Below, piece by piece: positions 3,707 through 54,653 of a stretch of 64,000 bases of DNA. The stretch spans positions 256,001 through 320,000 of the forward strand of contig CAWGLD010000007.1 of the NCBI GenBank assembly GCA_963823335.1, given 5' to 3'. The first letter of the stretch is position 1; each line of letters opens with the position of its first letter. The translations under genes and the position numbers were made by a program. The notes under the pieces are model-generated. The model was given only the letters and a program-made list of their open reading frames with translations, did not search any database and had not been told where the DNA came from. The stretch is from an uncultured delta proteobacterium (GTDB taxonomy: Bacteria > Desulfobacterota > Desulfobacteria > Desulfobacterales > B30-G6).

Positions 3707-6107
3707 TATTCGCCAATACCATGAGAGCGGGCGCTATAAAATAGTCCGAAAGAAGAGCCAGGACGATGGTGAGCCCTGTGAGAAATCCAAAATTGAAAAT
3801 ATTTTTCATGTCGGCAAACATAAATATGAAAAACCCAATGGACAGAACGACCGTCGTCACCAGCATGGCTCTACCGGTGGTGTGAAGTGTTTCCTGAACA
3901 GCCCAGACAGGGTCCCCTTTCTCTTCGTAGTATCGCCTGAAATTGTGCATGAAGTGGATGGTATCGTCCACGGCCAGTCCGATGGCAATGCTCCCCACCA
4001 TCATCGTGAAAGCATCCATGGGGAATGAGAGTGCTCCCATAACACCCAGCATGACAAGAATCGGTGTGATGTTGGGGATCATGCTCAGAAGACCGATGCG
4101 GAGGCCTCCGATCAGCAGTATCATCAGCAGGGTAATGATGACAAATGCGATGACATAGCTCATGGCCATGCTGACCATAACATTCGAGAGCGTTCTGAAC
4201 AGCAGTGGCATCATACCGGTAATCTGAAGCGTAACATCCTGAAAAACTTCATCAAAATAGCTGCCGACGTCCATCATGAGCTGCTGGTATTTAAGGGCGT
4301 CTGTAAAAGGTGCTTTGACCGTAAATCTGGCTATGGAAAACTGGCTGTCCACCATATCTTCGAGATCATCTGACCCGCTGTTTTCAAATAGAAGATATTC
4401 CTGGGCGATAACGTCACGGTTCTGCGGTATACGGTAATAGGCAGCCTGATTTTCATTCAAGGCCTGGTTGATCTCTTTCAGGATTGCCGTCAAAGACCAG
4501 GCCTTTCCGGCAAACACTTCCCCATAATCAAGAGTTTCAATATGTGTTGCCGCCTTTTCCAAGCGGTTGAGAATCAGGGGGTCATACAGACCGTTTTCCT
4601 TCCCGGTATCGATGATGATCTCCAGGTTGACAGTTCCCCGCATTTTCCGGTCAATCTGTTCTGTTGCCACTCTGACGATATTGTTCTCCGGGAACCAGCG
4701 CAACACGTCGTGTCCGAATCGTATCCTGAATATCATGGGAATCGACACCGCCAGGACCAGGCACGCAATCACCAGGATCAAAACCGGTCTCTGGGTTGAA
4801 AAACGAGCCACCCACTGTAGACTTCGGTCCATGATTGCCGGTTCGCTCCCGCCGGCGAGGGGGCGGCGTTGTTTCAAGGGCAGGGCCGCCAGCAGTGCCG
4901 GCAGCAACACCAGTGTGTAGACAAGGGCGATCACGACTCCGAAACTGGCGTACAGCCCGATGTCCGCAATAGGAGCAATTTGGGAAGTGGAAAAGGAGAG
5001 CAGGCCTGCGGCGGTGGTAATGTGGGTCATAATGCACGCCAGCCCTGAGTGACCAAGGGCATAGGCAATGGAAGTTTCTTTGTCTCCCGTTGCCTGAAAA
5101 CGGTGAAAAAAGATAGCCAGGATGTGTACTGAGGCCCCCACACAAACAGCCAGCAGAAACGATGGCAGAATCTGGGTCGGAAGCTTGATGGGTGTTCCAA
5201 GAAACGCCATCAGACCGAGGGTTGAGATGAGAGAACAGACCACAACCATCAACGGCAGGACAACACCCGATATCCGGCGAAACATGACAAACAGAAAAAC
5301 AGCAATGGTCATCACCGCCAGCATCACGAATTTCCGCATATCCCGCATCATGGAGGCTTTGAGACTGTGGGTGACGGCGGGTGACCCGGCTAGATACATC
5401 CTGGTGTCATCCCGGGCATGTTTTTCCATAACAGACTGAATGGCCATGATGACGGCGCTGTTTTCTTCATTGCTCAGATAGGCACTGGTGACGGACTGCG
5501 GGTCTGTACTCCCCATATCATCATCACCCGCTTCAAATCCTGCCAGCACATCTGTTTCTTTGCCAATACTCGAATAGTTCTGGGTCTTGATGACCATGGC
5601 AGTGGTGCCGCCGTCTTCAGAAATGAGAAGATTTTTGTACATGGGGTTGCTGACAACACGTTGTTTGAGCGACGCCATGGCAGTATCGTCGGTTGGAAAT
5701 GTCTCCAGCAGATCCTCGACAATGAGTTCGTCATCGTTACCCCGGGTATTGCGGGCATTGATCATGCTGGTAACATCTTCGAGATAGGGGACGTTTTCCT
5801 CGATATCCTCGTGCAGGGTTTTCAACCATGTGAAGAAATCCGTGTTGAATACCTGCGGTGGTTCAATGGCGATGATGACCACTTCGTCACGACCGAACTG
5901 ATCACGGAAAGCATTGTACGTCAGAATAGAGGGGTCCTTTTTATGAAGAAATCCCTCCGTTGAAAAATCGAGGGTAATCTTGGGAACCTGCGATGCAAAG
6001 GCAACCACGATCACCATCACACAAAATATCGACAGGAGTCGATGCCTGAAAGTCGTGTGGGCCAGTTTTTCTAAACTGTTTTCCAGTCGATTTCTGATAC
6101 CTGCCAT
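3684..6107 (-). CDS. MMPL/RND-superfamily transporter
   Basis: 807 aa, duplicated TM bundles with large periplasmic loops, IAIGLAVDDTIH motif. Confidence 0.9.
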   Translation of the reverse strand: MAGIRNRLENSLEKLAHTTFRHRLLSIFCVMVIVVAFASQVPKITLDFSTEGFLHKKDPSILTYNAFRDQFGRDEVVIIAIEPPQVFNTDFFTWLKTLHEDIEENVPYLEDVTSMINARNTRGNDDELIVEDLLETFPTDDTAMASLKQRVVSNPMYKNLLISEDGGTTAMVIKTQNYSSIGKETDVLAGFEAGDDDMGSTDPQSVTSAYLSNEENSAVIMAIQSVMEKHARDDTRMYLAGSPAVTHSLKASMMRDMRKFVMLAVMTIAVFLFVMFRRISGVVLPLMVVVCSLISTLGLMAFLGTPIKLPTQILPSFLLAVCVGASVHILAIFFHRFQATGDKETSIAYALGHSGLACIMTHITTAAGLLSFSTSQIAPIADIGLYASFGVVIALVYTLVLLPALLAALPLKQRRPLAGGSEPAIMDRSLQWVARFSTQRPVLILVIACLVLAVSIPMIFRIRFGHDVLRWFPENNIVRVATEQIDRKMRGTVNLEIIIDTGKENGLYDPLILNRLEKAATHIETLDYGEVFAGKAWSLTAILKEINQALNENQAAYYRIPQNRDVIAQEYLLFENSGSDDLEDMVDSQFSIARFTVKAPFTDALKYQQLMMDVGSYFDEVFQDVTLQITGMMPLLFRTLSNVMVSMAMSYVIAFVIITLLMILLIGGLRIGLLSMIPNITPILVMLGVMGALSFPMDAFTMMVGSIAIGLAVDDTIHFMHNFRRYYEEKGDPVWAVQETLHTTGRAMLVTTVVLSIGFFIFMFADMKNIFNFGFLTGLTIVLALLSDYFIAPALMVLANKAVSNKP

Positions 6108-7827: not shown

Positions 7828-9129
7828 ATGAAAACCTACACCTACCCGTCCCCGGCAGCGGAAAAAAGACTAGCAGCAATCGAAAACAGGACCATCGGGT
7901 TCAAAAAAAAAGATATCAGCGCGGTCAACCGCATCATCGAAAATATCAGAAAAAACGGGGATGCCGCTCTGGTGGGTTACACCCATCAATTCGATTCCAC
8001 GGCTGTGACAACGTCCTCCATCCAGGTAAGCCCACAGGAAATAGAGGCTGCCCAAAAAAATATTGATGCATCCTTTTTAAAGGCCCTCAATCGCGCGACA
8101 AGACAGATCAAGGTCTTCCATAGTAAACAACTTCAAAAATCATGGATCAGCACGGACCGCGAGGGTGTTCTTCTGGGACAACTGATCAACCCCGTAGGTG
8201 CTGCGGGTATTTATGTGCCCGGTGGCAGGGAAGGCAAAACACCCCTTGTTTCGACGGTGTTGATGTGCGCCATCCCCGCGGTACTGGCAGGCGTGAGTAG
8301 AATATCCATGCTGACCCCGCCCATGAAAAATGGTGCCGTCAACCCGCACCTGCTGGTTGCCGCAAAAAAGGCCGGTGTAAAGGATATTTACAAGGCGGGC
8401 AGTGCTTGGGCCATTGCCGCTCTGGCCTATGGTACCGAAACAATACCCAGGGCCGACGTCATCGTCGGTCCCGGCAATATCTACGTAACCCTGGCAAAGA
8501 AACTGGTCTCGGGAGATGTGGGCATCGATATGCTGGCAGGTCCCAGCGAAATCCTGATCGTGGCCGATGACAGCGCAGTGCCGGCCTACATCGCCGCAGA
8601 CCTTTTGTCACAGGCAGAACACGATCCATTGTCATCTTCGATCCTGGTGACGACATCTTCAGATATCGCCAGGCACGTCACCATGGCGCTGGAAGAACAG
8701 TTGAAACCCCTGAAGAGGAAAAACATTGCTGTGGCAGCGCTCGAAAAATTCGGGGCCATCCTGGTAGTCCCGGACATCTCCGTGGCTATAAGTATTGCCA
8801 ACCGGGTTGCCCCTGAGCACCTCGAACTGCAAATCAGAGACCCGTTCAGCATCATCGGAAACATCCGTCATGCCGGGGCTGTTTTTGTTGGAAACCATAC
8901 ACCGGAACCCGTGGGCGACTATATTGCCGGGCCAAATCACGTACTCCCCACAGCCGGAACTGCACGTTATGCGTCAGCCCTTTCCGTCGACCATTTTGTC
9001 AAGAAGACCAGTCTCATCCACTACACCGAAGCGCCTTTTAAAAAAGAGGCCCGAGACATCATGCGTCTGGCGGAGGTGGAAGGACTCGATGCGCACGTCA
9101 ATTCGGTGGGAATTAGGCTAGTAGACTGA
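7828..9129 (+). CDS. hisD: Histidinol dehydrogenase
   Basis: GIYVPGG, GPGNIYV, IDMLAGPSE, LLSQAEHD, APEHL, GDYIAGPNHVLPT; start codon among 7807/7819/7828. Confidence 0.97.
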   Translation: MKTYTYPSPAAEKRLAAIENRTIGFKKKDISAVNRIIENIRKNGDAALVGYTHQFDSTAVTTSSIQVSPQEIEAAQKNIDASFLKALNRATRQIKVFHSKQLQKSWISTDREGVLLGQLINPVGAAGIYVPGGREGKTPLVSTVLMCAIPAVLAGVSRISMLTPPMKNGAVNPHLLVAAKKAGVKDIYKAGSAWAIAALAYGTETIPRADVIVGPGNIYVTLAKKLVSGDVGIDMLAGPSEILIVADDSAVPAYIAADLLSQAEHDPLSSSILVTTSSDIARHVTMALEEQLKPLKRKNIAVAALEKFGAILVVPDISVAISIANRVAPEHLELQIRDPFSIIGNIRHAGAVFVGNHTPEPVGDYIAGPNHVLPTAGTARYASALSVDHFVKKTSLIHYTEAPFKKEARDIMRLAEVEGLDAHVNSVGIRLVD

Positions 9130-9250
9130 TAGGCTGTAGACTATTAGGTTGCTAAATGCTATCGGCTGTGGGCTGTTAGACTGTAGGATAAAAGCCTGTG
9201 AAACTGTGCAACGCCTAACAGCCTAACAGTCTACAGCCTAAACAACCTAA
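9113..9250. repeat. Inverted 7/8-mer microrepeat (TAGRCTG / CAGYCTA) at convergent junction
   Basis: taggcta gtagactga taggctg tagacta ... gcctaaca gcctaaca gtctaca gcctaa. Confidence 0.8.
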
Positions 9251-9262
9251 GTCGCTGCAAAG

Positions 9263-11215
9263 CTACACCGCTACAACCGCTACCCGGTAACACCTCAGAC
9301 AGCGTTTGGCTTCGGCGATGGCTTCGGGTGTTGAATAACCCTTTTCCACCTCATCAAAGCTTGTCTTACGTGTTTCCGGCGGCAACATCTCAAGGTGCTT
9401 CCTGCTCGCCTTGCCGATGCCACCAAGCACTTCTTCCCGGTCGTACACCTTAACATCCTTGTAAAACCGGTGAAAACAGTCTTCGCGGGTATATTCCAGG
9501 GGCCGACCATTGATAAGGTGGTCGATGCTCTGGGCGGCTTTCCGGCCGCCTGCGCAGGCTGTTATCAACGCACCCGGTCCGGTCTCACAATCCCCGGCAG
9601 AAAAAAACTTGGGCCGGGATGTCTGTTTGGTGACATCATCCACAATAAGGGTCTTCCAGGCTGTTGTCTCTATCCCCTCCATTCCTTCCAGAAGAGACAG
9701 ATCCACGCGCTGACCAATGGCCGGCACTACCGTATCACAATCGAATCTAAATTCGGACCCCTCGATGGGAACCGGTCTCCTGCGGCCACTCTTGTCGGGT
9801 TCGCCCAGTTTCAAGCGGATGCATTCGAGTCCGACCACCCGTCCATCCTCGGCAATAACACGGACCGGCGTGGTCAAAAAGTGGAATTCAACCTTCTCTT
9901 CTTCGGCATCCCTGATTTCCACCTCATCGGCCGGCATCTCGTTGCGGGTTCTGCGGTAGACCAGGTTAACATCCTCCTTCTTGACCCTGAAGGAGCTTCG
10001 CACACAGTCAATGGCAACATTTCCGCCGCCGATCACGACAACTCTGCGCCCTTCAGGATAGGGATCCCGTCCTTGGTTGATGTCCAGGAGATATTTGACA
10101 CCCGGAATGAACCCTTTGTACCCTTTTTCTTCCCCCTCGACTCGCATGGACGTGTTGTCCTGTGCCCCTATTCCGATAAATACCGCATCGAAATCATTTT
10201 CCAGCTGCTCAAGGGTGATGTCCTTTCCCACGGTGGTGTTGTAGTGAATGGTAACCCCCAAATTCTGAATCTGCTGGACCTCCCGGCGAAGAATAGCCCG
10301 GGGAAGCCGGTAGTCGGGTATACCCACTGCCGACATACCACCGGGCTCAGACAGGTGTTCATATATGGTGACGGCATGCCCCTTCAGGGCAAGATGATAG
10401 GCACAGGTAACACCTGCCGGTCCGGCACCGACAATGGCAACCTTGCCTGTCTTGGAAGACGGGACAATCCCATAGGCGGGTCCCTTATGTTTGGCCAGTT
10501 CCTGATCCGCCACAAATCGTTTAAGGTATTTTATGGACACAGCCTCGTCCAGGTTGGCTCTGCGGCAATTTTCCTCGCATGGACGCACACAGACACGCCC
10601 GACGATTCCCGGGATGGGCAGACGTGCACGAATGACATCCAGCGAATCCTGAAACCGGCCTTCCTTGATGCATTCGACATAGCGGGGAATGTCCAGATGA
10701 ATGGGACAGGCTTCCATACACGGTGCCGTGACGCTGGCATGATACTGTCCGGACGTTATGGCTTTCTTTTCGTCAACCAGTTTTGCAAACTGCTCCGGGA
10801 AATGGGTCAATGCATCCAAAATCGGCAGAGGGCCGGTCTTCCCGATACCACACTTGGCTGTGCAATGAACCGTCTCGGCAATGTCTTTCAGATAAACGAT
10901 GTCTGATGGCCTTCCCTGGCCGTTGCAGATCGTCTCCAGTGTTTTTGCCATGACGGTCGTTCCGGACTGGCACGGGATACACTTTCCACAGGACTGATTC
11001 CGGACAGCCTCCATGTAAACCCGGCAGAGGTCCACCACATGCACATCTTCTGAACGAAGAACAAAACCATCCCAACCCATAAAGGCCTTGATTGGTCCTG
11101 TTTCATTCAGTTTTTCAGGCCATCGAATTTCTTGGTGTGCTTTGGAATCCGTTTTTGAGCCGTCACGATTATCGACGACCTGGCCTTCCCAGGAACTGAA
11201 TATGACATCTTTCAT
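9263..11215 (-). CDS. SfrB-like NAD(P)H oxidoreductase subunit (NuoF-type 4Fe-4S domain plus GltD-like FAD/Fe-S domain)
   Basis: VIFSSW..QVVDNR and AFMGWDG N-terminus, SCGKCIPC, PCMEACP, GRVCVRPCEENCRR, GAGPAG, GGGNVAIDC, C-terminal RCLRC. Confidence 0.85.
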   Translation of the reverse strand: MKDVIFSSWEGQVVDNRDGSKTDSKAHQEIRWPEKLNETGPIKAFMGWDGFVLRSEDVHVVDLCRVYMEAVRNQSCGKCIPCQSGTTVMAKTLETICNGQGRPSDIVYLKDIAETVHCTAKCGIGKTGPLPILDALTHFPEQFAKLVDEKKAITSGQYHASVTAPCMEACPIHLDIPRYVECIKEGRFQDSLDVIRARLPIPGIVGRVCVRPCEENCRRANLDEAVSIKYLKRFVADQELAKHKGPAYGIVPSSKTGKVAIVGAGPAGVTCAYHLALKGHAVTIYEHLSEPGGMSAVGIPDYRLPRAILRREVQQIQNLGVTIHYNTTVGKDITLEQLENDFDAVFIGIGAQDNTSMRVEGEEKGYKGFIPGVKYLLDINQGRDPYPEGRRVVVIGGGNVAIDCVRSSFRVKKEDVNLVYRRTRNEMPADEVEIRDAEEEKVEFHFLTTPVRVIAEDGRVVGLECIRLKLGEPDKSGRRRPVPIEGSEFRFDCDTVVPAIGQRVDLSLLEGMEGIETTAWKTLIVDDVTKQTSRPKFFSAGDCETGPGALITACAGGRKAAQSIDHLINGRPLEYTREDCFHRFYKDVKVYDREEVLGGIGKASRKHLEMLPPETRKTSFDEVEKGYSTPEAIAEAKRCLRCYRVAVVAV

Positions 11216-11404: not shown

Positions 11405-11552
11405 TTAGAAGGTCTCTCAAAAACAGGATTTTGGTTCAAGTTCAAGGCGGCTGAGCAATTCAAACCGCAGGAATACTATGGTATTTTGAGGAGTTGAATT
11501 GCTCAGCCAACACAGAAATTGGGCCAAAAGACATTGTTGAGATGACGTCTAA
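11405..11552. mobile_element. MITE-like ~148-bp element with imperfect terminal IRs and a long internal hairpin
   Basis: Ends ttagaaggtctctcaaaa / ttgttgagatgacgtctaa; internal perfect 15-bp IR ggctgagcaattcaa/ttgaattgctcagcc; right end overlaps the stop of the purH C-terminal gene. Confidence 0.6.
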
Positions 11553-12799
11553 TGTTTGAAACTTCGTTGGCCCGTATACACCATGGTCACGCCGGCGGCA
11601 TTGCATGCTTCGATGGACTGATAATCATTGGTTGAACCACCGGGTTGGATCACCGCAGAAACACCCTCCCGAATACCCACGTCAATCCCATCTCGAAAAG
11701 GAAAGAACGCGTCACTCACCATCGCAGATCCCATCAGACCACCCTTTTCTCTTGACACGCGCTGGTCGATTTCAGACAGCGCTGCAGCATCTTTCATGTC
11801 GTTGTAGGACGTCTTGAATGTCTCAAAACAGTATCGATCCGCCAGTTTCCGATAGGCTTTATCCCGTGCGATCTCGGCAACACCCACCCTGTCCTGCTCA
11901 CCTGTTCCGATTCCGACGGTAACCAGATCCTTGACATAGATCACCGAGTTGGAAGTGATACCGGATTCCACCAACCAGCCGAAAAGCAGGTCCTGGTATT
12001 CCTTTTCCGTGGGCATCCGATGGATTTTGTAGGTTTGTCCCTGATAGGTACATTCCGCCGGTATCAGATCCTCTTTTGAACGTGCCGCGGGAACAAAAGA
12101 CCATTGGGCGATAAAACCACCATCGATGAGGCTTTTGAACTCAACGCAGCGCTTGCCCACAAAATTTTGAAGTCTGTTGATATTGTCGATCCGGATGACC
12201 CGCAGATTTTTCTTCAGAGAAAATATCTCCATGACACCTTCTTCGAACTCCGGGGCCACGACGACTTCTGAATACTGGTTGGAAATGGCTTCTGCCGTGG
12301 CTTTGTCCACAGGTCGATTGAGAGCGATACAACCGCCGAATGCCGCTACCCGGTCCGCCATATTGGCCTTGATGTAAGCTTCGGCCAGGGTGTCCGCCTG
12401 GGCAACACCGCACGGATTGTTGTGTTTGACAATCACGACCGTTGGCTTGTCCACAAAATAGCGCAGAATATTCAGTGAATTGTCGGCATCCGTGAGGTTT
12501 GTTTTCCCGGGGTGTTTACCCGATTGGAGCAGTTCGACATCTGAAGCAAGATACTGACCCGGCTGGATGGTTTCCGTTTCACCCAGCATGAGATTACCAT
12601 TCACCAGTTTGAAAAGTGCAGCTTCCTGACCTGGGTTTTCTCCATACCGCAAACCTTTTTGAACCCCATCGATCACCCAGGTGACCTTTTCATAAAACAG
12701 GGTCTGACGTTTATCCTTGTCGACAAAGCTTATTTCCATGTTGGCAGGAAAGCTGTCCTCGACGATGGTACTGTACATTTTTTTCAAATCTTCAGACAT
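11549..12799 (-). CDS. purH: AICAR transformylase domain (C-terminal half of PurH) as a separate gene
   Basis: LRYGENPGQ, KHNNPCGVA, AFGG, SDAFFPFRDG, IQPGGS; start MSEDLKK with AAAGGAG RBS. Confidence 0.88.
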   Translation of the reverse strand: MSEDLKKMYSTIVEDSFPANMEISFVDKDKRQTLFYEKVTWVIDGVQKGLRYGENPGQEAALFKLVNGNLMLGETETIQPGQYLASDVELLQSGKHPGKTNLTDADNSLNILRYFVDKPTVVIVKHNNPCGVAQADTLAEAYIKANMADRVAAFGGCIALNRPVDKATAEAISNQYSEVVVAPEFEEGVMEIFSLKKNLRVIRIDNINRLQNFVGKRCVEFKSLIDGGFIAQWSFVPAARSKEDLIPAECTYQGQTYKIHRMPTEKEYQDLLFGWLVESGITSNSVIYVKDLVTVGIGTGEQDRVGVAEIARDKAYRKLADRYCFETFKTSYNDMKDAAALSEIDQRVSREKGGLMGSAMVSDAFFPFRDGIDVGIREGVSAVIQPGGSTNDYQSIEACNAAGVTMVYTGQRSFKH

Positions 12800-12880
12800 G
12801 GCTGGCTCCTTTTGACGCGATATGGGAATAAAATTACAGAGACATCTCTTAAACTTCCAGTTTTCCCAAAAATGGGAGCA

Positions 12881-12993
12881 AGGGTCCAAGGGTTCGGGGG
12901 TAGCTGACGGCCATAAGCTGATAGCTACCCTCGAACCCTTGTATCACCCTCGGACCCTCGAACCCTTCATTTGGATCAACCCATTCGGCATGA
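12881..12993. repeat. Cargo-less inverted octamer element (GGGTYCRA / TCGRACCC) with conserved tail
   Basis: agggtccaagggttcgggggtagct...agctaccctcgaaccct...cctcggaccctcgaacccttcatttggatcaacccattcggcatga; tail matches 39305-39328. Confidence 0.75.
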
Positions 12994-13018: not shown

Positions 13019-13696
13019 CTATATCTCATAGCAACCCTCGACTTCCCCCTGACTCTTGGATGCCAGAAAGTCCGCAATGGTACGATCATAAACCGCCGTA
13101 TGTTCAAAGGCCTTCCGGGCGAGTCGGAAACGAAGGCCCAATGATGTAACGCCGGCGTTTTTCTCCATCTCCGCGATAACCATATCATAATCCCCCGGAT
13201 CAACGACCGATGCTACCCGGATAAAATTTTTTGCCGAAGCCCTGATCATACACGGTCCACCAATATCGATATTTCCTCGAGCCTGTTCCGGGGTCACATC
13301 TTCCCGTGAAATGGTTTCCTTGAACGGGTAGAGATTCACCACCACCATATCGATGGGCACACTGTTTGTCCTGGAGAGATCCCCCTTGTGAGCGTCATTG
13401 TAGGTCTCGGTCAGGAGCCCGAGGTATATTTTGAAATCCAGGGTCTTCACGAGCCCACCCTGGGTCTCGGGTTGGCCGGTGTATTCGGACACCTGTTTCA
13501 AACAGGCGGACGATTTCTCACCAAGGATCTCTGTGAGCCTCTGATAGGTTCCGCCGGTGGAAAAAAACTGAATCTCCGGGTTGATCTGTATCAGCCGGGG
13601 AACGAAAGTGTCCAGCCCCTGCTTGTCGGAAACGCTCAAAAGAACATGATTGATCTTAACGGCATCGTCGATTTTTTCTACGACATTGATTCCCAT
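13019..13696 (-). CDS. purH: IMP cyclohydrolase domain (N-terminal MGS-like half of PurH) as a separate gene
   Basis: LLSVSDK, FSTGGT, YTGQPE..GGLVKTL, NLYPF, IDIGGPCMIRASAKN; GAGGAGG RBS. Confidence 0.9.
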   Translation of the reverse strand: MGINVVEKIDDAVKINHVLLSVSDKQGLDTFVPRLIQINPEIQFFSTGGTYQRLTEILGEKSSACLKQVSEYTGQPETQGGLVKTLDFKIYLGLLTETYNDAHKGDLSRTNSVPIDMVVVNLYPFKETISREDVTPEQARGNIDIGGPCMIRASAKNFIRVASVVDPGDYDMVIAEMEKNAGVTSLGLRFRLARKAFEHTAVYDRTIADFLASKSQGEVEGCYEI

Positions 13697-13712
13697 TGTC
13701 AGCCTACCTCCT

Positions 13713-13870
13713 CATTGACACTTCGTGTGACATTTGCACTTCGTGCGTCATTTATCCTTCGGATGTCATTTGCCCTGCGGGCGATATTTGTCCTTCGGAC
13801 GACATTTGCGCTGTGCGCGTCATTTCGCCTGCGGCTGTCATTTGCCCTACGGGCGTAATTCATTGTCGCT
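13713..13870 (-). repeat. Array of eight 18-nt mini-hairpin units (AAATGAC linker, variable 4-bp stem, GNA loop) plus leader AGCGACAATGAATTAC
   Basis: Minus-strand units: gccc-gta-gggc, agcc-gca-ggcg, gcgc-aca-gcgc, gtcc-gaa-ggac, gccc-gca-gggc, atcc-gaa-ggat, gcac-gaa-gtgc, acac-gaa-gtgt. Confidence 0.92.
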
Positions 13871-13942
13871 GAAAGCTCATAGCTTACCTAAAATTTAAAA
13901 CATAAAACGATCTATATGACGCGTAGCAAATGACAATTGTTT

Positions 13943-14044
13943 CCCCTCCAAACCTTTGACCCTTTGTTTTTCCCCTCGAACCCTCCAACCCTCTGCCCCT
14001 TGGTTTTCCCCTCGGCCCCTCCAAACCTCCAACCCTCCAAACCT
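13943..14044 (-). repeat. G-rich octamer tandem repeats (GGGTTGGA-like)
   Basis: Plus strand ccctccaa/cctccaaa/ccctcgaa units directly after the HD-gene stop. Confidence 0.8.
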
Positions 14045-14048
14045 TCTT

Positions 14049-14699
14049 TTACCTCTCCCCCTCATGCTCGGACAGAAAGCGGTCGAAAAAAGAGACCATA
14101 TAAGCATCCCGATCCACTGCCAGACGTTTACCTTCATTCGTCAGAATTCGATCTTTGATTTTTGAAAGCTTCAGTCGATACTCGCGATACCCGGTATCTT
14201 CCTTGGAGTATGGTTGGGTATCCTCAATATCCTCATGCAAATTGTGAAGACGGGCTCCCACTTCACCGGCAAAAAGAAATGCCCTGCCAATACCCACCGC
14301 TCCGATGGCATCCAGTTTGTCTGCATCAAAAAGAACCCGTGCCTCGATGGTCCTGGGCGAACCATTCCCCCGGAAGCGGTGCGATCGAATACAATGTAAA
14401 ATATTTTCTTTCCTTTGTTCAGATAGGAGAAGCGGTTGAATCAGTGGTTCAGCCAGTTCCGCCCCCTTTTCCGCATGGCAGATTCTGCCGTTTGACGCAT
14501 CCTGATAACACCTGCCGATGTCGTGGAGACAGGCCGCGATAAGCAGCACATCCATGTCCGCCCTTTCTGCCTCGCCGATCCGCCGGCACAGACGAAACAC
14601 TCTGAGGGTATGTTCCCAGTCATGGCTCCCTTTGGCGGCCGCAAACATTCTTTCGGCAAGAATCTTGATTTTTTCCACAGATGATGGACCGTTCACCAT
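14049..14699 (-). CDS. HD-domain metal-dependent phosphohydrolase
   Basis: SHDWEHTLRV, LHDIGR, HA, SHRF, LFDADKLDAIGAVG; start uncertain (track extends to 14813). Confidence 0.88.
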   Translation of the reverse strand: MVNGPSSVEKIKILAERMFAAAKGSHDWEHTLRVFRLCRRIGEAERADMDVLLIAACLHDIGRCYQDASNGRICHAEKGAELAEPLIQPLLLSEQRKENILHCIRSHRFRGNGSPRTIEARVLFDADKLDAIGAVGIGRAFLFAGEVGARLHNLHEDIEDTQPYSKEDTGYREYRLKLSKIKDRILTNEGKRLAVDRDAYMVSFFDRFLSEHEGER

Positions 14700-14997
14700 T
14701 CCAGACACCCTGTTTGGCACAAAAGACTTTTTTGAAATAGGTTCTATCAATCCTGAGGAATTGTTGTCAAGCCACAAGAAGCATCGGCGATACCCGTTCC
14801 AATAGGGAGACAACAGCAGTTCAGGCCTGGCCCATGGACATGGATAGGGATGTCATTCAAATATCATCCACAATCCACCACTAAAAAAAATCTATTGCAA
14901 AATTATATTAACATTCGTAAATTATTATAAATAATTTATTTATATCTTAATTTTTTTACTTGACTTTCTACCAATAATATACTTTTATGCATCAAAA

Positions 14998-26174: not shown

Positions 26175-26272
26175 GTTGGCTTACAGCCAAGAGCGACAAT
26201 AAATGACGCGCGTAGCGCAAATGACGTCCGCAGGACGAATATAGCCCGAAGGGCAAATGACATCTGAAATAA
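26162..26272 (+). repeat. Second GNA mini-hairpin array (3 intact plus 1 degenerate unit) with leader and heptamers
   Basis: ttaggttttaggtt...agcgacaat aaatgac gcgc-gta-gcgc aaatgac gtcc-gca-ggac gaatata gccc-gaa-gggc aaatgac atct-gaa. Confidence 0.9.
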
Positions 26273-26338: not shown

Positions 26339-27721
26339 ATGTACCATAAACAATATCATATCCATTTTGTCGGAATCGGCGGCATCGGAATGAGTGGAAT
26401 TGCAGAGTTGTTGATCAATCTTGGATACACGGTGTCCGGCTCAGATATTACACTGTCCGATATTACCAGTCGTCTTGAGACACTCGGCGGCACCATATAC
26501 CGTGGTCACAGCGGAGCGAACATCCAGAATGCTGACGTGGTGGTCACATCTTCGGCCGTGAAAAGCAGCAACGCTGAAGTTCTGGCAGCAGAACAGCTCG
26601 CCATTCCCGTGATCCCCAGAGCAGAAATGCTTGCCGAGCTCATGCGTCTGAAATACAGCATCGCTATTGCCGGCGCCCATGGCAAGACATCCACCACATC
26701 TATCGTTTCATCTATTCTGGCCGAGGGAGGGCTGGATCCCACGGTGGTCATCGGAGGCAGGTTGAAGAGTATCGGGTCCAACGCGCTGCTCGGGCAAGGA
26801 GAGTACATCGTTGCCGAGGCCGATGAAAGTGATGGTTCCTTTCTCAAGATGTCCCCGGCCATTGCCGTGGTTACCAATATCGACCGGGAGCATCTGGATT
26901 ACTATCCGGACATCTCCGCAATTAAAAATGCATTTTTGGAATTTATCCAGAAGGTTCCCTTTTATGGTTTAGGGGTACTCTGTCTGGACAACGAGCATAT
27001 TCAGGAACTCTTACCGGCCATCAAGAAGCGGTTTGTCACCTATGGCATGAGTTCCCAAGCCGATGTGCAGGCCAGAAATGTCCGTTTTGAAGGGCTGAAA
27101 AGCCGATTCGATATCTATTCTGAGGGTGAAACCCTAGGAGAAATTTATCTCAATCTGCCTGGCAACCACAGTATCGCCAATGCCATGGCAGGTATTGCCG
27201 TCGGACGCGAGTTGGGTATCCCTTTTCCTGTCATCAAGACAGCACTCGAAAAGGTTGAAGGTGTCCAGAGACGACTTGAAATCAAAGGCGAGCAGAACGG
27301 TATCACCGTGGTGGATGACTATGGACACCATCCCACCGAAATCAAGGCCACGCTCCAGGCCATCAAGGATGCCTGGCCGAACCGTCGAAAAGTAGTGGTG
27401 TTTCAGCCGCACCGGTATTCGAGGACCCAGGCATTGTTTCATGAATTCACGCGTTCTTTTTATCAATCAAATGTTCTGCTGGTGCTGCCCATTTACTCGG
27501 CAGGTGAACAGATTATTGAGGGCGTCAACGGACACGACCTGTGTGAAGGTATCATGGCCCACGGCCACAAAGAAGTCATCAGCACGGACGGTATCGACAG
27601 CGCCGTTGGTCACTTACAAAAAATACTGCGCAGGGATGACGTCCTGCTGACCCTCGGAGCCGGAGATGTCTGGAAAGTGGGTGAGGCAGTGTTGACGAGG
27701 GTTGGAGGGTTGGAGGGTTGA
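26339..27721 (+). CDS. murC: UDP-MurNAc--L-alanine ligase
   Basis: HFVGIGGIGMSGIA, GAHGKTSTT, EADESD, DDYGHHPTE, FQPHRYSRT. Confidence 0.97.
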   Translation: MYHKQYHIHFVGIGGIGMSGIAELLINLGYTVSGSDITLSDITSRLETLGGTIYRGHSGANIQNADVVVTSSAVKSSNAEVLAAEQLAIPVIPRAEMLAELMRLKYSIAIAGAHGKTSTTSIVSSILAEGGLDPTVVIGGRLKSIGSNALLGQGEYIVAEADESDGSFLKMSPAIAVVTNIDREHLDYYPDISAIKNAFLEFIQKVPFYGLGVLCLDNEHIQELLPAIKKRFVTYGMSSQADVQARNVRFEGLKSRFDIYSEGETLGEIYLNLPGNHSIANAMAGIAVGRELGIPFPVIKTALEKVEGVQRRLEIKGEQNGITVVDDYGHHPTEIKATLQAIKDAWPNRRKVVVFQPHRYSRTQALFHEFTRSFYQSNVLLVLPIYSAGEQIIEGVNGHDLCEGIMAHGHKEVISTDGIDSAVGHLQKILRRDDVLLTLGAGDVWKVGEAVLTRVGGLEG

Positions 27722-27728
27722 AGGGTAG
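27697..27728 (+). repeat. Octamer tandem repeat GAGGGTTG x3-4 overlapping the murC stop
   Basis: gagggttg gagggttg gagggttg aagggtag. Confidence 0.85.
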
Positions 27729-39042: not shown

Positions 39043-39328
39043 AGGGTTCAAGGAGTCCAGGATTCAAGGATTCAAGTGTTTGTTTTCCAGGGATGTGATC
39101 ATCGCTTTTAGCATTCTCTCTACATCCCCAAGCTCCTCTCTTAATCCCTGAAGCTTTTCCTTGTTCATATAATCCAAATCACCGGATATCATCGTCTGCG
39201 TTTCTAATTCACAGCCTTTAACTCTTTATAATTCTTAAGCATTCAGCTGGTGCCTCACTTCGTCTCACTCGAACCCTGGACCCCTATAATCCTTGAATCC
39301 TTAATTTGGATCAACTCTTTGGGGATGA
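39043..39328. mobile_element. Inverted-octamer-flanked element carrying a four-helix-bundle gene remnant
   Basis: Left gggttcaag gagtccag gattcaag gattcaag; right ctcgaacc ctggaccc ctataatc cttgaatc; tail tttggatcaactctttggggatga. Confidence 0.7.
39064..39242 (-). pseudogene. Internally deleted four-helix-bundle protein gene (23S rRNA IVP / Avd-like family)
   Basis: Reads MLKNYKELK, then an out-of-frame junction, then CELETQTMISGDLDYMNKEKLQGLREELGDVERMLKAMITSLENKHLNP*. These match the family's typical N- and C-termini (ELETQ motif) from recall; the central S..SNIAEG segment is absent. Confidence 0.8.
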
Positions 39329-47372: not shown

Positions 47373-47447
47373 TGGCTGGGGCGGGAGGATTCGAACCTCC
47401 GAATGCAGGAACCAAAGTCCTGTGTCTTACCGCTTGACGACGCCCCA
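47373..47447 (-). tRNA. tRNA-Gln (anticodon TTG)
   Basis: TGGGGCGTCGTCAAGCGGTAAGACACAGGAC-TTTGG-TTCCTGCATTCGGAGGTTCGAATCCTCCCGCCCCAGCCA; cloverleaf, encoded CCA, classic ispE-tRNAGln-prs synteny. Confidence 0.97.
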
Positions 47448-48380: not shown

Positions 48381-48797
48381 TTATCGACGTTCCTTTACAT
48401 AAAGCATTCTCAGTTCATACAGCATGGTTTTAAGCATATTGGCCTCGTCATCCGACAAATTCCCCTTGGTCTTTTCTTCCATCATTCCCAGTATGTCGAT
48501 GGTCTGTTTGGCCAATGGCAAATTCCTTGCCTTTTGGTTCGTCGCTGGGTCTTCGATAACACCCAGATTTACGAGGGCAGATGAATTGAGCGAGAAAATA
48601 AAGGTCGGAAAATTGATTTCCGGTAAGCGGTAGTCTTCATTGGCGGTGGCCTTTTCAAATTCCTTAGCTTTTTCTGCTGCTTTTTCTGGGCCTTCATTTT
48701 CAACGGTCTCAGTCTCTTTCGTTGTTTCATCTTCCGGGGTATCTCCGGAAAACAATCTTTTGTCCTTGACCACAAAGTCTTTTTTCTCGTCTGGCAT
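48381..48797 (-). CDS. DUF1844-like protein
   Basis: LPEINFPTFIFSL...ALVNLG...AKQTIDILGM..EKTKGNL. Confidence 0.8.
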   Translation of the reverse strand: MPDEKKDFVVKDKRLFSGDTPEDETTKETETVENEGPEKAAEKAKEFEKATANEDYRLPEINFPTFIFSLNSSALVNLGVIEDPATNQKARNLPLAKQTIDILGMMEEKTKGNLSDDEANMLKTMLYELRMLYVKERR

Positions 48798-48813: not shown

Positions 48814-48975
48814 GCCCTGTGGGGGTCACGTTGCCTTCGGCTGTCATTTGCCTTTCAGGCGTCATTTACACTTCGTGTGACATTACGCCCTTCGGGCGTG
48901 ATTTATTGCCGCTTATAGCTGATAGTTTTCAGCTGTAAACAAACCTAAAACGTAACACATAAAACCTAAAACCTC
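48814..48975 (-). repeat. Third GNA mini-hairpin array (5 units) with leader and AGGTTTT heptamers
   Basis: Minus strand: aggttttaggtttt...agcggcaataaatcac gccc-gaa-gggc, acac-gaa-gtgt, gcct-gaa-aggc, agcc-gaa-ggca, cccc-aca-gggc. Confidence 0.9.
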
Positions 48976-54405: not shown

Positions 54406-54653
54406 GGTTGTGCACCCTCTGTTGTGTTATTTCAAAGCTCCCTGGCCTGTTATTGATCGAGATCGATCCACGACACAGAACCCATCACTTATCGCTGCTT
54501 CCTTCCGGACCTGACGAGGTTCGTGAGTGTCTGTTGCGTAGCGTCCGATCAAACAAAACCTGGGAATTCCAAAAATACCCTAAAGAGGGAGTTCAGCCCC
54601 GCATAAGCGGATTTCGGGACGAGGGCACCGCTAGCTCCCCGCCTAGCACAACC
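54406..54653 (-). ncRNA. ffs: Large (Alu-domain) bacterial signal recognition particle RNA
   Basis: Helix-8 core GAACCTCGTCAGGTCCGGAAGGAAGCAGCG; 5' Alu-like GTGCTAGGCGGGGAGCTAGCGGTGCCC; terminal helix GGTTGTGC/GCACAACC; ~248 nt. Confidence 0.93.

Follow-up and report, generated by a model that had tools for sequence, protein, structure and literature searches.

A dispersed family of GNA-loop mini-hairpin arrays in the intergenic spacers of an uncultured delta proteobacterium

The stretch of DNA considered here, 64,000 nucleotides (nt) from an uncultured delta proteobacterium (GenBank assembly GCA_963823335.1, contig CAWGLD010000007.1, positions 256,001 to 320,000 of the forward strand; hereafter the window), carries between two minus-strand genes a spacer in which a very short hairpin unit recurs in tandem. 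A first-pass annotation had singled out this array as a candidate undescribed element composed of hairpins with covarying stems and a near-constant linker. We find that the array is real, beyond chance, and that it is a copy of a lineage-wide, non-coding and fast-evolving composite family of the kind one might term an intergenic mosaic. The array has no function specific to the adjoining IMP cyclohydrolase gene and fills, together with other repeats, the space from the stop codon of an HD-domain gene to the next ribosome-binding site (RBS). The features of the locus are the following.

13019–13696, minus strand: downstream gene of 225 amino acids (aa) with a stand-alone IMP-cyclohydrolase-type domain (Pfam: MGS and the N-terminal part of AICARFT_IMPCHas); start codon ATG at 13696–13694.
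13707–13717, minus strand: terminal linker-like CAATGAG (13717–13711) merging with the RBS GAGGAGG (13713–13707); read directly.
13718–13861, minus strand: hairpin array of eight 18-nt units, read directly; Tandem Repeats Finder (TRF) periods 18 and 36; parsed as C7:269718-269861, 8 units.
13862–13884, minus strand: leader heptamers AGCTATG AGCTTTC AGCGACA, then AT; read directly.
13885–13910, minus strand: short run of GTTTTAGG-type 8-mers 5' of the heptamers, part of the composite repeat region; alike 8-mers stand upstream of other arrays.
13916–13936, plus strand: relic of one unit running the other way (ATGAC-GC-GTA-GC-AAATGAC), what remains of a second, divergent arm; read directly.
13943–14044, no strand assigned: G-rich 8-nt and 36-nt tandem repeats (GGAGGGTT type), the remainder of the spacer; TRF.
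14049–14813, minus strand: upstream gene for an HD-domain protein (Pfam), with an uncertain start of its open reading frame (ORF); beside the spacer in relatives too.

Each unit of the array consists of a 7-nt linker followed by an 11-nt hairpin, that is, a stem of 4 base pairs (bp), a 3-nt loop and the complementary 4 nt. The linkers are GAATTAC in the first unit (13861–13855), AAATGAC in four, AAATGTC in two and AAATATC in one, and the hairpins read, in order, GCCC-GTA-GGGC, AGCC-GCA-GGCG (with an outer A/G mismatch), GCGC-ACA-GCGC, GTCC-GAA-GGAC, GCCC-GCA-GGGC, ATCC-GAA-GGAT, GCAC-GAA-GTGC and ACAC-GAA-GTGT, the last ending at 13718. All eight close with a C-G pair and seven have a GNA loop, none of them GGA. 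The annotation had placed the element at 13713–13870 on the same strand, and direct reading of the minus-strand sequence bears out its coordinates, stems, loops and leader; its further statement that the array ends at the RBS of an IMP cyclohydrolase gene is likewise correct, in that CAATGAG merges into GAGGAGG and the Pfam domains fit the gene name. RBS sequences of the GGGAGGTAA type occupy the equivalent place in orthologous loci, and at the other end the leader stretch AGCGACAAT (13870–13862) stands directly 5' of the first linker. The descriptor search that had been proposed as a check (AAATGWC-N4-GNA) yields 11 matches in the window, far above the 1.58 ± 1.24 expected, a number reached in 0 of 100 shuffles; five of these matches lie in the studied array, five in arrays at about 26201 (plus strand) and 48836 (minus strand), and an isolated one at 5697 (plus strand).

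The assembled sequence is matched by two DNA contigs of another study, at 13458–13737 and 13708–13830, with zero differences, and those contig joints which skip 36–37 nt have short sides (21–29 nt). When contigs from two RNA libraries and two DNA runs are compared with 13019–14813, those of the RNA libraries cover both flanking genes; on the array itself there are only pieces of 42–76 nt with loose ends that do not fit, which probably come from other copies of the family. A scan of the spacer for sigma-70-like promoters found none. The array probably lies in the leader or intercistronic RNA of the IMP cyclohydrolase gene.

A tolerant parser finds 45 arrays with 221 units in this genome (G000; 11 contigs, 4.37 Mb), and the studied array is one of at least 45 copies of the family here. 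Two others lie in the window.

26201–26261, plus strand: second array, with units GCGC-GTA, GTCC-GCA and GCCC-GAA and a trailing linker, and a leader of the same type; descriptor and direct reading.
48814–48904, minus strand: third array, with units GCCC-GAA, ACAC-GAA, GCCT-GAAA and AGCC-GAA and one degenerate unit, ending 16 nt before an ATG at 48797.

The gene downstream of the third array carries DUF1844. Most arrays share a composite 5' side, in which 8-mers of the GGAGGGTT or GTTTTAGG type give way to AGCNNNN heptamers, and these to ACAAT and the first linker; the junction (AGCNNNN)n-ACAAT stands before most arrays of the family, and the leader-junction pattern GCNACAATRAATNAC alone gives 34 matches at 32 loci in this genome. 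A linker is found at both the start and the end of arrays, and at some loci two arms diverge from a short centre, an arrangement that recurs in all three phyla in which the family occurs. Of 176 internal units, 139 measure 18 nt and the others 10, 16, 19 or 20 nt. The genes downstream of 33 other sense arrays are ordinary metabolic or regulatory genes without a common theme, for example those for aconitase, porphobilinogen synthase, acyl-CoA dehydrogenases, carboxyltransferases, lipoyl synthase and TetR and AsnC regulators, and Pfam finds in these 33 genes no mobile-element, reverse-transcriptase, defence, cas-type or replication-/partition-type domain.

What is maintained in these units is the structure of the stem, not its sequence. 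In this genome 142 of 184 payloads of 11 nt pair at all four positions, and 662 of 736 cells pair as compared with 453 ± 10 in 1000 shuffles (maximum 488). A structure-blind set, in which units were chosen solely by the presence of two linkers 18 nt apart, comprises 127 distinct units, 104 of them fully paired; among the 114 that were aligned, drawn from three phyla, 93.4% of cells are paired against 63.3 ± 1.5% after shuffling (0/500 as high), and sliding the partner by 1–3 columns lowers the value to 12.5–35.5%. Both sides of the pair have changed in 116 cells, and covariation is found at all four pairs, which upholds the earlier proposal that structure rather than sequence is kept. That proposal had leaned on compensatory changes, and here a qualification is due: the stems do covary, but the covariation is carried by some ten recurring stem types that appear in recurrent order, so that the number of independent events is small. 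The mutual information between linker and stem is significant on both sides and does not discriminate the true unit boundary.

The loops and closing pairs obey a rule known from oligonucleotide chemistry. According to the sections of Hirao (2026; PMC13037366) that deal with mini-hairpins, GNA alone among all 64 triloops forms the exceptionally stable DNA mini-hairpin, the stem must provide a GC-GC or CC-GG step and hence a C-G closing pair, stability follows the central loop base in the order A > G > C > T, and the RNA versions are far less stable and melt far lower. In this genome 154 of 184 units close with C-G (102 of 114 in the structure-blind set) and 151 of 184 have a GNA loop (GAA 98, GCA 34, GTA 16, GGA 3), while a few 12-nt payloads show GNNA loops such as GATA. 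The C-G closure and GNA enrichment that had been noticed in eight units thus hold over many, and match the published rule for DNA. The agreement extends to one strand only, and the central base is biased in the order A > C > T >> G, contrary to the thermodynamic order: GGA accounts for 3 of 151 GNA loops in this genome, 2 of 77 in relatives, 0 of 66 in Calditrichia and 0 of 81 in Bacteroidota (5/375 in total). Cells with G:T are not favoured over those with A:C (by hand count some 18 versus 22 in this genome, and 5:3, 0:5 and 12:3 in the other groups), which argues against selection acting on an RNA helix.

The order of the units is constrained, too. Adjacent units never share a stem in this genome (0/121), as against 15.6 ± 3.5 expected from shuffling the whole pool and 5.2 ± 1.9 from shuffling within arrays, and do so only once in 178 cases at loci of related metagenome-assembled genomes (MAGs), where 18.9 ± 4.0 are expected; the corresponding counts for Calditrichia (0/14) and Bacteroidota (2/31) come from small samples and are not significant. 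Of the 45 arrays, 23 open with GCGC, and the commonest transitions are GCGC>GTCC (22), GTCC>GCAC (13) and AGCC>GCGC (8). A stem type recurs at offset 3 in 7 of 57 cases, with 3.2 expected, and duplications of multi-unit blocks are seen directly, of 54 nt in one relative (G007) and of 52 nt at a Calditrichia locus. Taken together, these constraints give the arrays the appearance of copies that diverge from a master of several units and change block by block, and not of products of one-unit slippage.

A comparison of the orthologous locus shows the turnover of the array. The pair formed by the HD gene and the IMP cyclohydrolase gene is kept in 15 of 15 genomes of the family to which this genome belongs, with the RBS retained and the flanking genes 72–93% identical. 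The spacer between them holds eight units in this genome and, in relatives, eight units in another order, twelve, about four decayed ones, five followed by other repeats, or a single unit; elsewhere it holds heptamers only, unrelated 7- to 8-nt repeats, or no repeats at all (a spacer of about 55 nt in G001; the g3 genus). The comparison of orthologous sites suggested by the annotation thus reveals an array that is not conserved and whose composition differs among species. An array that is reshuffled, replaced or missing at the orthologous locus is not a gene-specific regulator.

A search pattern of two successive units gives 75 matches in this genome and none with the reversed pattern as control. 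Within the same family, 13 of the 14 other genomes, from three genera, match it as well (control 0). Outside the family it has no match in 26 genomes from the order's other families, nor in 400 further genomes sampled from the phylum. In G001, the remaining family member, which lacks a two-unit match, a 400-kb sample nevertheless contains three short relic arrays along with short tandem repeats of other kinds. In a scan of species representatives at least 125 stretches were found, of which at least 82 hold two or more fully paired units. Among the matches listed, most are from Desulfobacterales, delta-proteobacterial or Thermodesulfobacteriota MAGs; outside Desulfobacterota they include at least 5 loci in one Calditrichia MAG and at least 14 in Bacteroidota MAGs (Bacteroidales, three Rikenellaceae, Paludibacter, Saprospiraceae and Bacteroidia), and no real array from Cyanobacteria is among them. 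The family is spread over the whole of these genomes, too: a pattern of one unit matches 146 times in the Calditrichia MAG and 20–35 times in each of four Bacteroidota MAGs, and again its control never matches. The three phyla share a linker core, CAATGAC, AAATGAC or AAATTAC, and the stems GCGC, GCCC, GGCC and AGCC. The label of candidate undescribed element accordingly stands as far as the lack of an Rfam match goes, but not in its suggestion of a singular object, there being at least 45 arrays in this genome and a family that spans several phyla.

Two of the loci retrieved deserve separate mention. A Bacteroidales MAG (L256, G443:C29:174718-178035, at about 1480–1860) contains many 'empty' repeats of 10 to 11 nt that have AATGAC and no hairpin, with hairpin units interspersed, and its arms diverge from an AT-rich centre within a convergent spacer. 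A pattern scan of viral contigs gave 25 stretches with no real array among them; one of these (L182) carries a different 18-nt tandem repeat (ACCGAAGGTGCAATTACG type), which is a chance match to the pattern and looks coding. Likewise, blastn found no match to the array in plasmid and phage collections.

The placement of arrays relative to genes follows a rule in this genome that does not extend to the other phyla. Here 27 arrays in co-directional spacers are sense and 4 antisense, with 7 more in divergent and 7 in convergent spacers, and the 3' end of the 27 sense arrays lies a median of 20 nt (hand reading) before the next start codon; a 400-kb sample of a relative (G004) gives 4 sense against 1 antisense. 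In the Calditrichia MAG the counts are 7 sense, 7 antisense, 12 convergent and 6 divergent, and a Bacteroidales MAG has 1 sense and 7 antisense arrays, with 6 in convergent and 3 in divergent spacers; in that MAG an array's 3' end usually adjoins the stop codon of an opposite-strand gene. What all three genomes have in common is that this 3' end is near a gene boundary. Since the orientation rule is not universal across phyla, a universal function as a 5' leader is unlikely. An explanation by replication strand was also considered and rejected: the sense strand is locally G-rich in only 18 of 45 arrays, and plus- and minus-strand arrays interleave within one replichore, so that orientation follows genes rather than replication.

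No known family or machinery could be attached to the arrays. A match to a catalogued Rfam family, which would have deprived the element of its novelty, was sought at three levels: the window at gathering scores (only the signal recognition particle (SRP) RNA and a tRNA, both elsewhere), the array region at E up to 10 (a single chance-level match, E = 5) and five further array loci with an E limit of 1 (MIR2630 alone, its 34.6 bits falling short of the 144 threshold). Full-text searches of the literature brought up no description of such arrays. As far as these searches reach, the family is previously uncatalogued and its architecture new. The annotation had also envisaged genes of the HUH/RAYT transposase or reverse transcriptase type beside arrays, and none was found: Y1_Tnp (PF01797) is present in 15 of 15 family genomes regardless of array abundance, none of the eight Y1 loci of this genome has units within 2.5 kb, and no such domain occurs in the 33 downstream genes. 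A link with RAYT and REP was rejected on the ubiquity of PF01797 in the family and on the absence of units near the Y1 loci. XisH, which MacGregor links to the distribution of TAACTGA repeats (PMC4679880, in the part dealing with it), was likewise dismissed, being found in 0 of 15 family genomes.

The nearest described phenomenon is the TAACTGA/STRR heptamer repeats of Beggiatoaceae, Cyanobacteria and Bacteroidetes (MacGregor 2015; PMC4679880). As characterised in the relevant sections of that paper, they resemble the present arrays in being intergenic, present in many copies per genome, mixed with other heptamers and patchy across phyla; in one lineage they are mostly forward and a few nt upstream of start codons, the downstream functions being patternless. 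They are also absent from orthologous spacers of close relatives, a rapid turnover which is seen here at the locus compared in 15 genomes, and those sections give no known transfer mechanism for them. The start-proximal forward placement is likewise seen in this genome (27 versus 4), although not in the Calditrichia or Bacteroidales MAG. The difference lies in the architecture, since TAACTGA repeats are bare head-to-tail 7-nt units predicted to be without secondary structure (PMC4679880, same sections), whereas in the present arrays heptamers are separated by 11-nt covarying GNA hairpins, neighbours differ and the order is recurrent. S1, Csp or CsrA have been proposed there as binders of the TAACTGA repeats.

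REP and BIME elements, as presented in the pertinent parts of PMC2817692 and PMC3116915, are also high-copy intergenic palindromes with a constant 5' motif beside the hairpin; several of their tips contain GCG(N)AGC, and their presumed active form is a hairpin of single-stranded DNA. They differ, according to the same parts, in that the palindromes are imperfect, measure 20–40 nt, carry a GTAG head and mostly form inverted pairs, and in that REPs flank a RAYT gene, whereas the present units have an 11-nt hairpin with a 4-bp stem and an AAATGAC head in direct tandem, only whole arms being sometimes divergent. Every defining REP feature that we looked for is lacking. The mini-hairpins d(GCGNAGC) and d(GCGNNAGC) have in common with our units the C-G closure on a GC or CC step, the GNA (in some cases GNNA) loop and the strand specificity (Hirao 2026, PMC13037366), but the natural cases in the mini-hairpin sections of that review are single hairpins at phage and plasmid priming sites and in N4 promoters, and we found in these sections no mention of dispersed arrays. 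An analogy with the N4 promoter, which the annotation had drawn, fails on the loop: the N4 hairpins have a 5-bp stem and a 3-nt loop, lie in the phage early region and bind with highest affinity when the loop is GGA (PMC13037366, same sections), whereas here the stem is of 4 bp, GGA is nearly absent (5/375) and there is no phage context.

With CRISPR the arrays share the regular alternation of constant and variable segments in a polar array with a leader. A CRISPR array, in contrast, has constant repeats of 23–47 nt, unique spacers and cas genes; here the logic is turned round, the constant part being a 7-nt spacer within an 18-nt unit and the variable part a palindrome drawn from about ten recurring types, and no cas-type domain occurs in the downstream genes examined. 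The SDR elements of Nostocaceae, which Elhai and colleagues are said to have described in 2008, are reportedly intergenic sequences of 21–27 nt, some of them hairpin-forming, that lie inside heptamer tracts and vary among strains. They may be related in kind to the present arrays. In the part of PMC5861425 that treats them no SDR was found outside Nostocaceae, and SDRs are mentioned also in PMC3116915.

The reading we tentatively prefer, with a probability of about 0.45, is that of a selfish or neutral dispersed intergenic repeat, whose structure is kept at the level of single-stranded DNA by its own propagation and whose orientation is filtered by transcription. Whenever the sense strand is single-stranded DNA, each unit would fold into a C-G-closed GNA mini-hairpin; this fold would be needed by the copying process, or would let copies persist, and would thus be kept by the element and not by a host function. 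Blocks of several units would be duplicated, deleted or converted between the constant linkers, and transcription would then filter the orientation of the arrays, differently in each lineage, a filter that would suit the placement in this genome and that in the other phyla alike. At the studied locus the array would serve as spacer or leader in a passive way. Read in antisense, every unit gives a GC hairpin with UCAUUU behind it, a weakly terminator-like signal that would be harmful within operons and tolerable past stop codons; two terminator-like sites were flagged on that strand against 0.5 ± 0.7 expected. Several points weigh against this reading. The terminator idea relies on weak stems of 4 to 6 bp, and the counts of sense and antisense arrays rest on crude ORF calls of our own. 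Global folding is near that of shuffled sequences (z = −0.29 as RNA and −0.41 for the DNA sense strand, values in which the standard parameters may omit a GNA bonus; the DNA antisense strand gives z = −1.57). Neighbours without a shared stem contradict single-unit slippage, the simplest route of growth, in a genome whose plain 7- and 8-mers do stand as identical tandem copies. Moreover, four features have the look of purifying selection acting on something that is recognised, namely neighbour exclusion, loop conservation, the near-absence of GGA and one AATGAC core for all three phyla, and a protein partner or a host function would account for them equally well or better.

One form that such recognition could take, which we regard as unlikely, is an enzyme-driven nano-mobile module, in which a horizontally transferred dedicated enzyme recognises the unit or array as single-stranded DNA. 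The enzyme might be an HUH/Y1-type nuclease, a primase-polymerase or a reverse transcriptase that cuts or primes beside the ...TGAC/TTAC end of the linker, an insertion would restore the target it had used, so that arrays would lengthen by one addition after another; IS608, for comparison, inserts 3' of TTAC. The linker at both array ends would be in keeping with this, as would the AATGAC (or AATTAC) core and the GCGC, GCCC, GGCC and AGCC stems common to Desulfobacterota, Calditrichia and Bacteroidota, the strand-specific loop with its A > C > T >> G preference against the thermodynamic order, and neighbour exclusion, which fits the addition of different units better than slippage; in the relevant part of PMC2817692 the tips of enterobacterial REPs, the RAYT substrates, also contain GCG(a/c/g)AGC. 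Yet Y1_Tnp is present in 15/15 family genomes whatever the abundance of arrays, with 0/8 Y1 loci near units, no candidate gene adjoins the arrays (33 downstream genes), 0/25 viral stretches are real arrays, the plasmid and phage collections give no blastn match, and the recurrent order (GCGC>GTCC 22, GTCC>GCAC 13) suggests whole-array copying and not the independent insertion of units. Should the 18-nt module be, against our expectation, the working part of an undescribed single-stranded-DNA system passed among the three phyla, one that reads a C-G-closed GNA mini-hairpin beside AATGAC, its enzyme or binder would read a central base A, C or T and not G, and would add or copy modules. Neighbour exclusion, GGA avoidance and the shared linker would then be its recognition rules, and no structured mobile or templated repeat unit known from bacteria would be smaller.

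The recognised object could also be RNA, in that the transcribed leader or intercistronic element would offer hairpins and A-rich linkers as a multivalent platform to a general RNA-binding protein or the ribosome and thereby tune translation or stability, a proposal about which we are more doubtful still. The placement in this genome is what such an element would require, 27 of 31 co-directional arrays being sense, a median of 20 nt before the start codon and directly at the RBS, and in the sections of PMC4679880 cited above TAACTGA arrays are placed likewise. Differing stems in neighbouring units would make the hairpins fold locally, and a GGA loop would create GGAGG just before the linker ATG, so that its absence could reflect the avoidance of false starts. 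GGA is, however, equally absent in Calditrichia (0/66) and in Bacteroidota (0/81), which in general use Shine-Dalgarno sites little, and the placement is not kept across phyla (7 versus 7 in the Calditrichia MAG, 1 versus 7 in the Bacteroidales MAG). Against it also stand an array that is not conserved at orthologous loci and that a close relative does without, downstream genes without a common theme, G:U pairs no more favoured than A:C, RNA mini-hairpins much less stable than those of DNA, and the RNA z of −0.29. We consider it improbable that the arrays bind a protein as double-stranded DNA, be it in an iteron-like, centromere-like or nucleoid-associated fashion with the heptamer at 18-bp spacing as the site and the palindromes as spacers or secondary sites. 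The constant AATGAC core at a regular 18-bp period and the symmetric two-armed elements that diverge from an AT-rich centre in all three phyla would suit it, and some plasmid partition sites do show a two-armed divergent arrangement; but strand-specific GNA loops and covarying stems are needless for duplex binding, the unit spacing varies (10, 16, 18, 19 and 20 nt), and there are at least 45 arrays per genome, beside metabolic genes, with a replication- or partition-type Pfam domain in 0/33 downstream genes. To a coding repeat we give next to no credence. An ATG-initiated ORF of 54 codons (13699–13863, minus strand) does span the array, stopping 2 nt before the gene's ATG, and would specify a hexapeptide-repeat leader peptide; it is probably fortuitous, and the coding reading was rejected, 37 of 176 internal units genome-wide not being multiples of 3 (payloads of 3, 9, 12 and 13 nt), orthologous arrays varying in the number and order of units, and arrays occurring in both orientations and also after stop codons. 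Three features nevertheless keep a module read by a protein under consideration, whether a mobile one, which is unlikely, or a regulatory one, which is somewhat more doubtful: neighbouring units exclude each other's stem, GGA loops are avoided and the linker is shared. The annotation had itself suggested a protein-binding platform or an unknown mobile system.

Small dispersed repeats of the REP, STRR, TAACTGA and SDR kinds abound in bacterial genomes, but where they come from and how they spread is for the most part unexplained. The present family is an unusually clean case, in which the variable part obeys a rule of oligonucleotide chemistry, that of the GNA DNA mini-hairpin, and three constraints go beyond slippage, namely differing neighbour stems, the almost complete lack of GGA and one linker in three phyla. 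Should a protein read the modules, it could be sought with the arrays themselves as the DNA to be bound or cut; otherwise the arrays illustrate, in nature, how the structure of single-stranded DNA can drive repeat evolution. In practical terms, the arrays break short-read assemblies and mark fast intergenic turnover in sediment Desulfobacterales, Calditrichia and Bacteroidales.

The genome is also rich in other 7- and 8-nt tandem repeats, present as identical tandem copies. The commonest are AACATCG (45 arrays), AAGGATTC (34), AAAACACG (31) and AACCCTCC (30; the 8-mer family of the studied spacer), and the window contains further intergenic families, GAGGGTTG, CCTCCAAA, GCCTAACA, TTTCGTGA and AAACCTA among them, with short-repeat sites at 2400–2533, 9112–9283, 12927–12966, 14018–14044, 27697–27726, 39048–39076 and 48941–48974. 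On the largest scale, contig C1 (2.0 Mb) has a V-shaped cumulative GC skew with its minimum near 1.0 Mb; hairpin arrays are dense at 0.18–0.71 and 1.44–1.86 Mb of this contig, and there are none in 0.71–1.44 Mb. ORFs of about 330 aa with a weak Y1_Tnp (IS200-like) domain are multi-copy, eight here and 1–13 per relative (for example C7:406630-406968, C2:74509-74832 and C1:783095-783418), and are not associated with arrays. Elsewhere in the window, an ORF of 446 aa at 11549–12889 (minus strand) lies directly downstream of the gene with the IMP-cyclohydrolase domain and might provide AICAR transformylase in a split PurH arrangement, and the SRP RNA (large bacterial type, 136 bits) at 54408–54651 and the tRNA gene at 47376–47447, both on the minus strand, are unrelated to the array.

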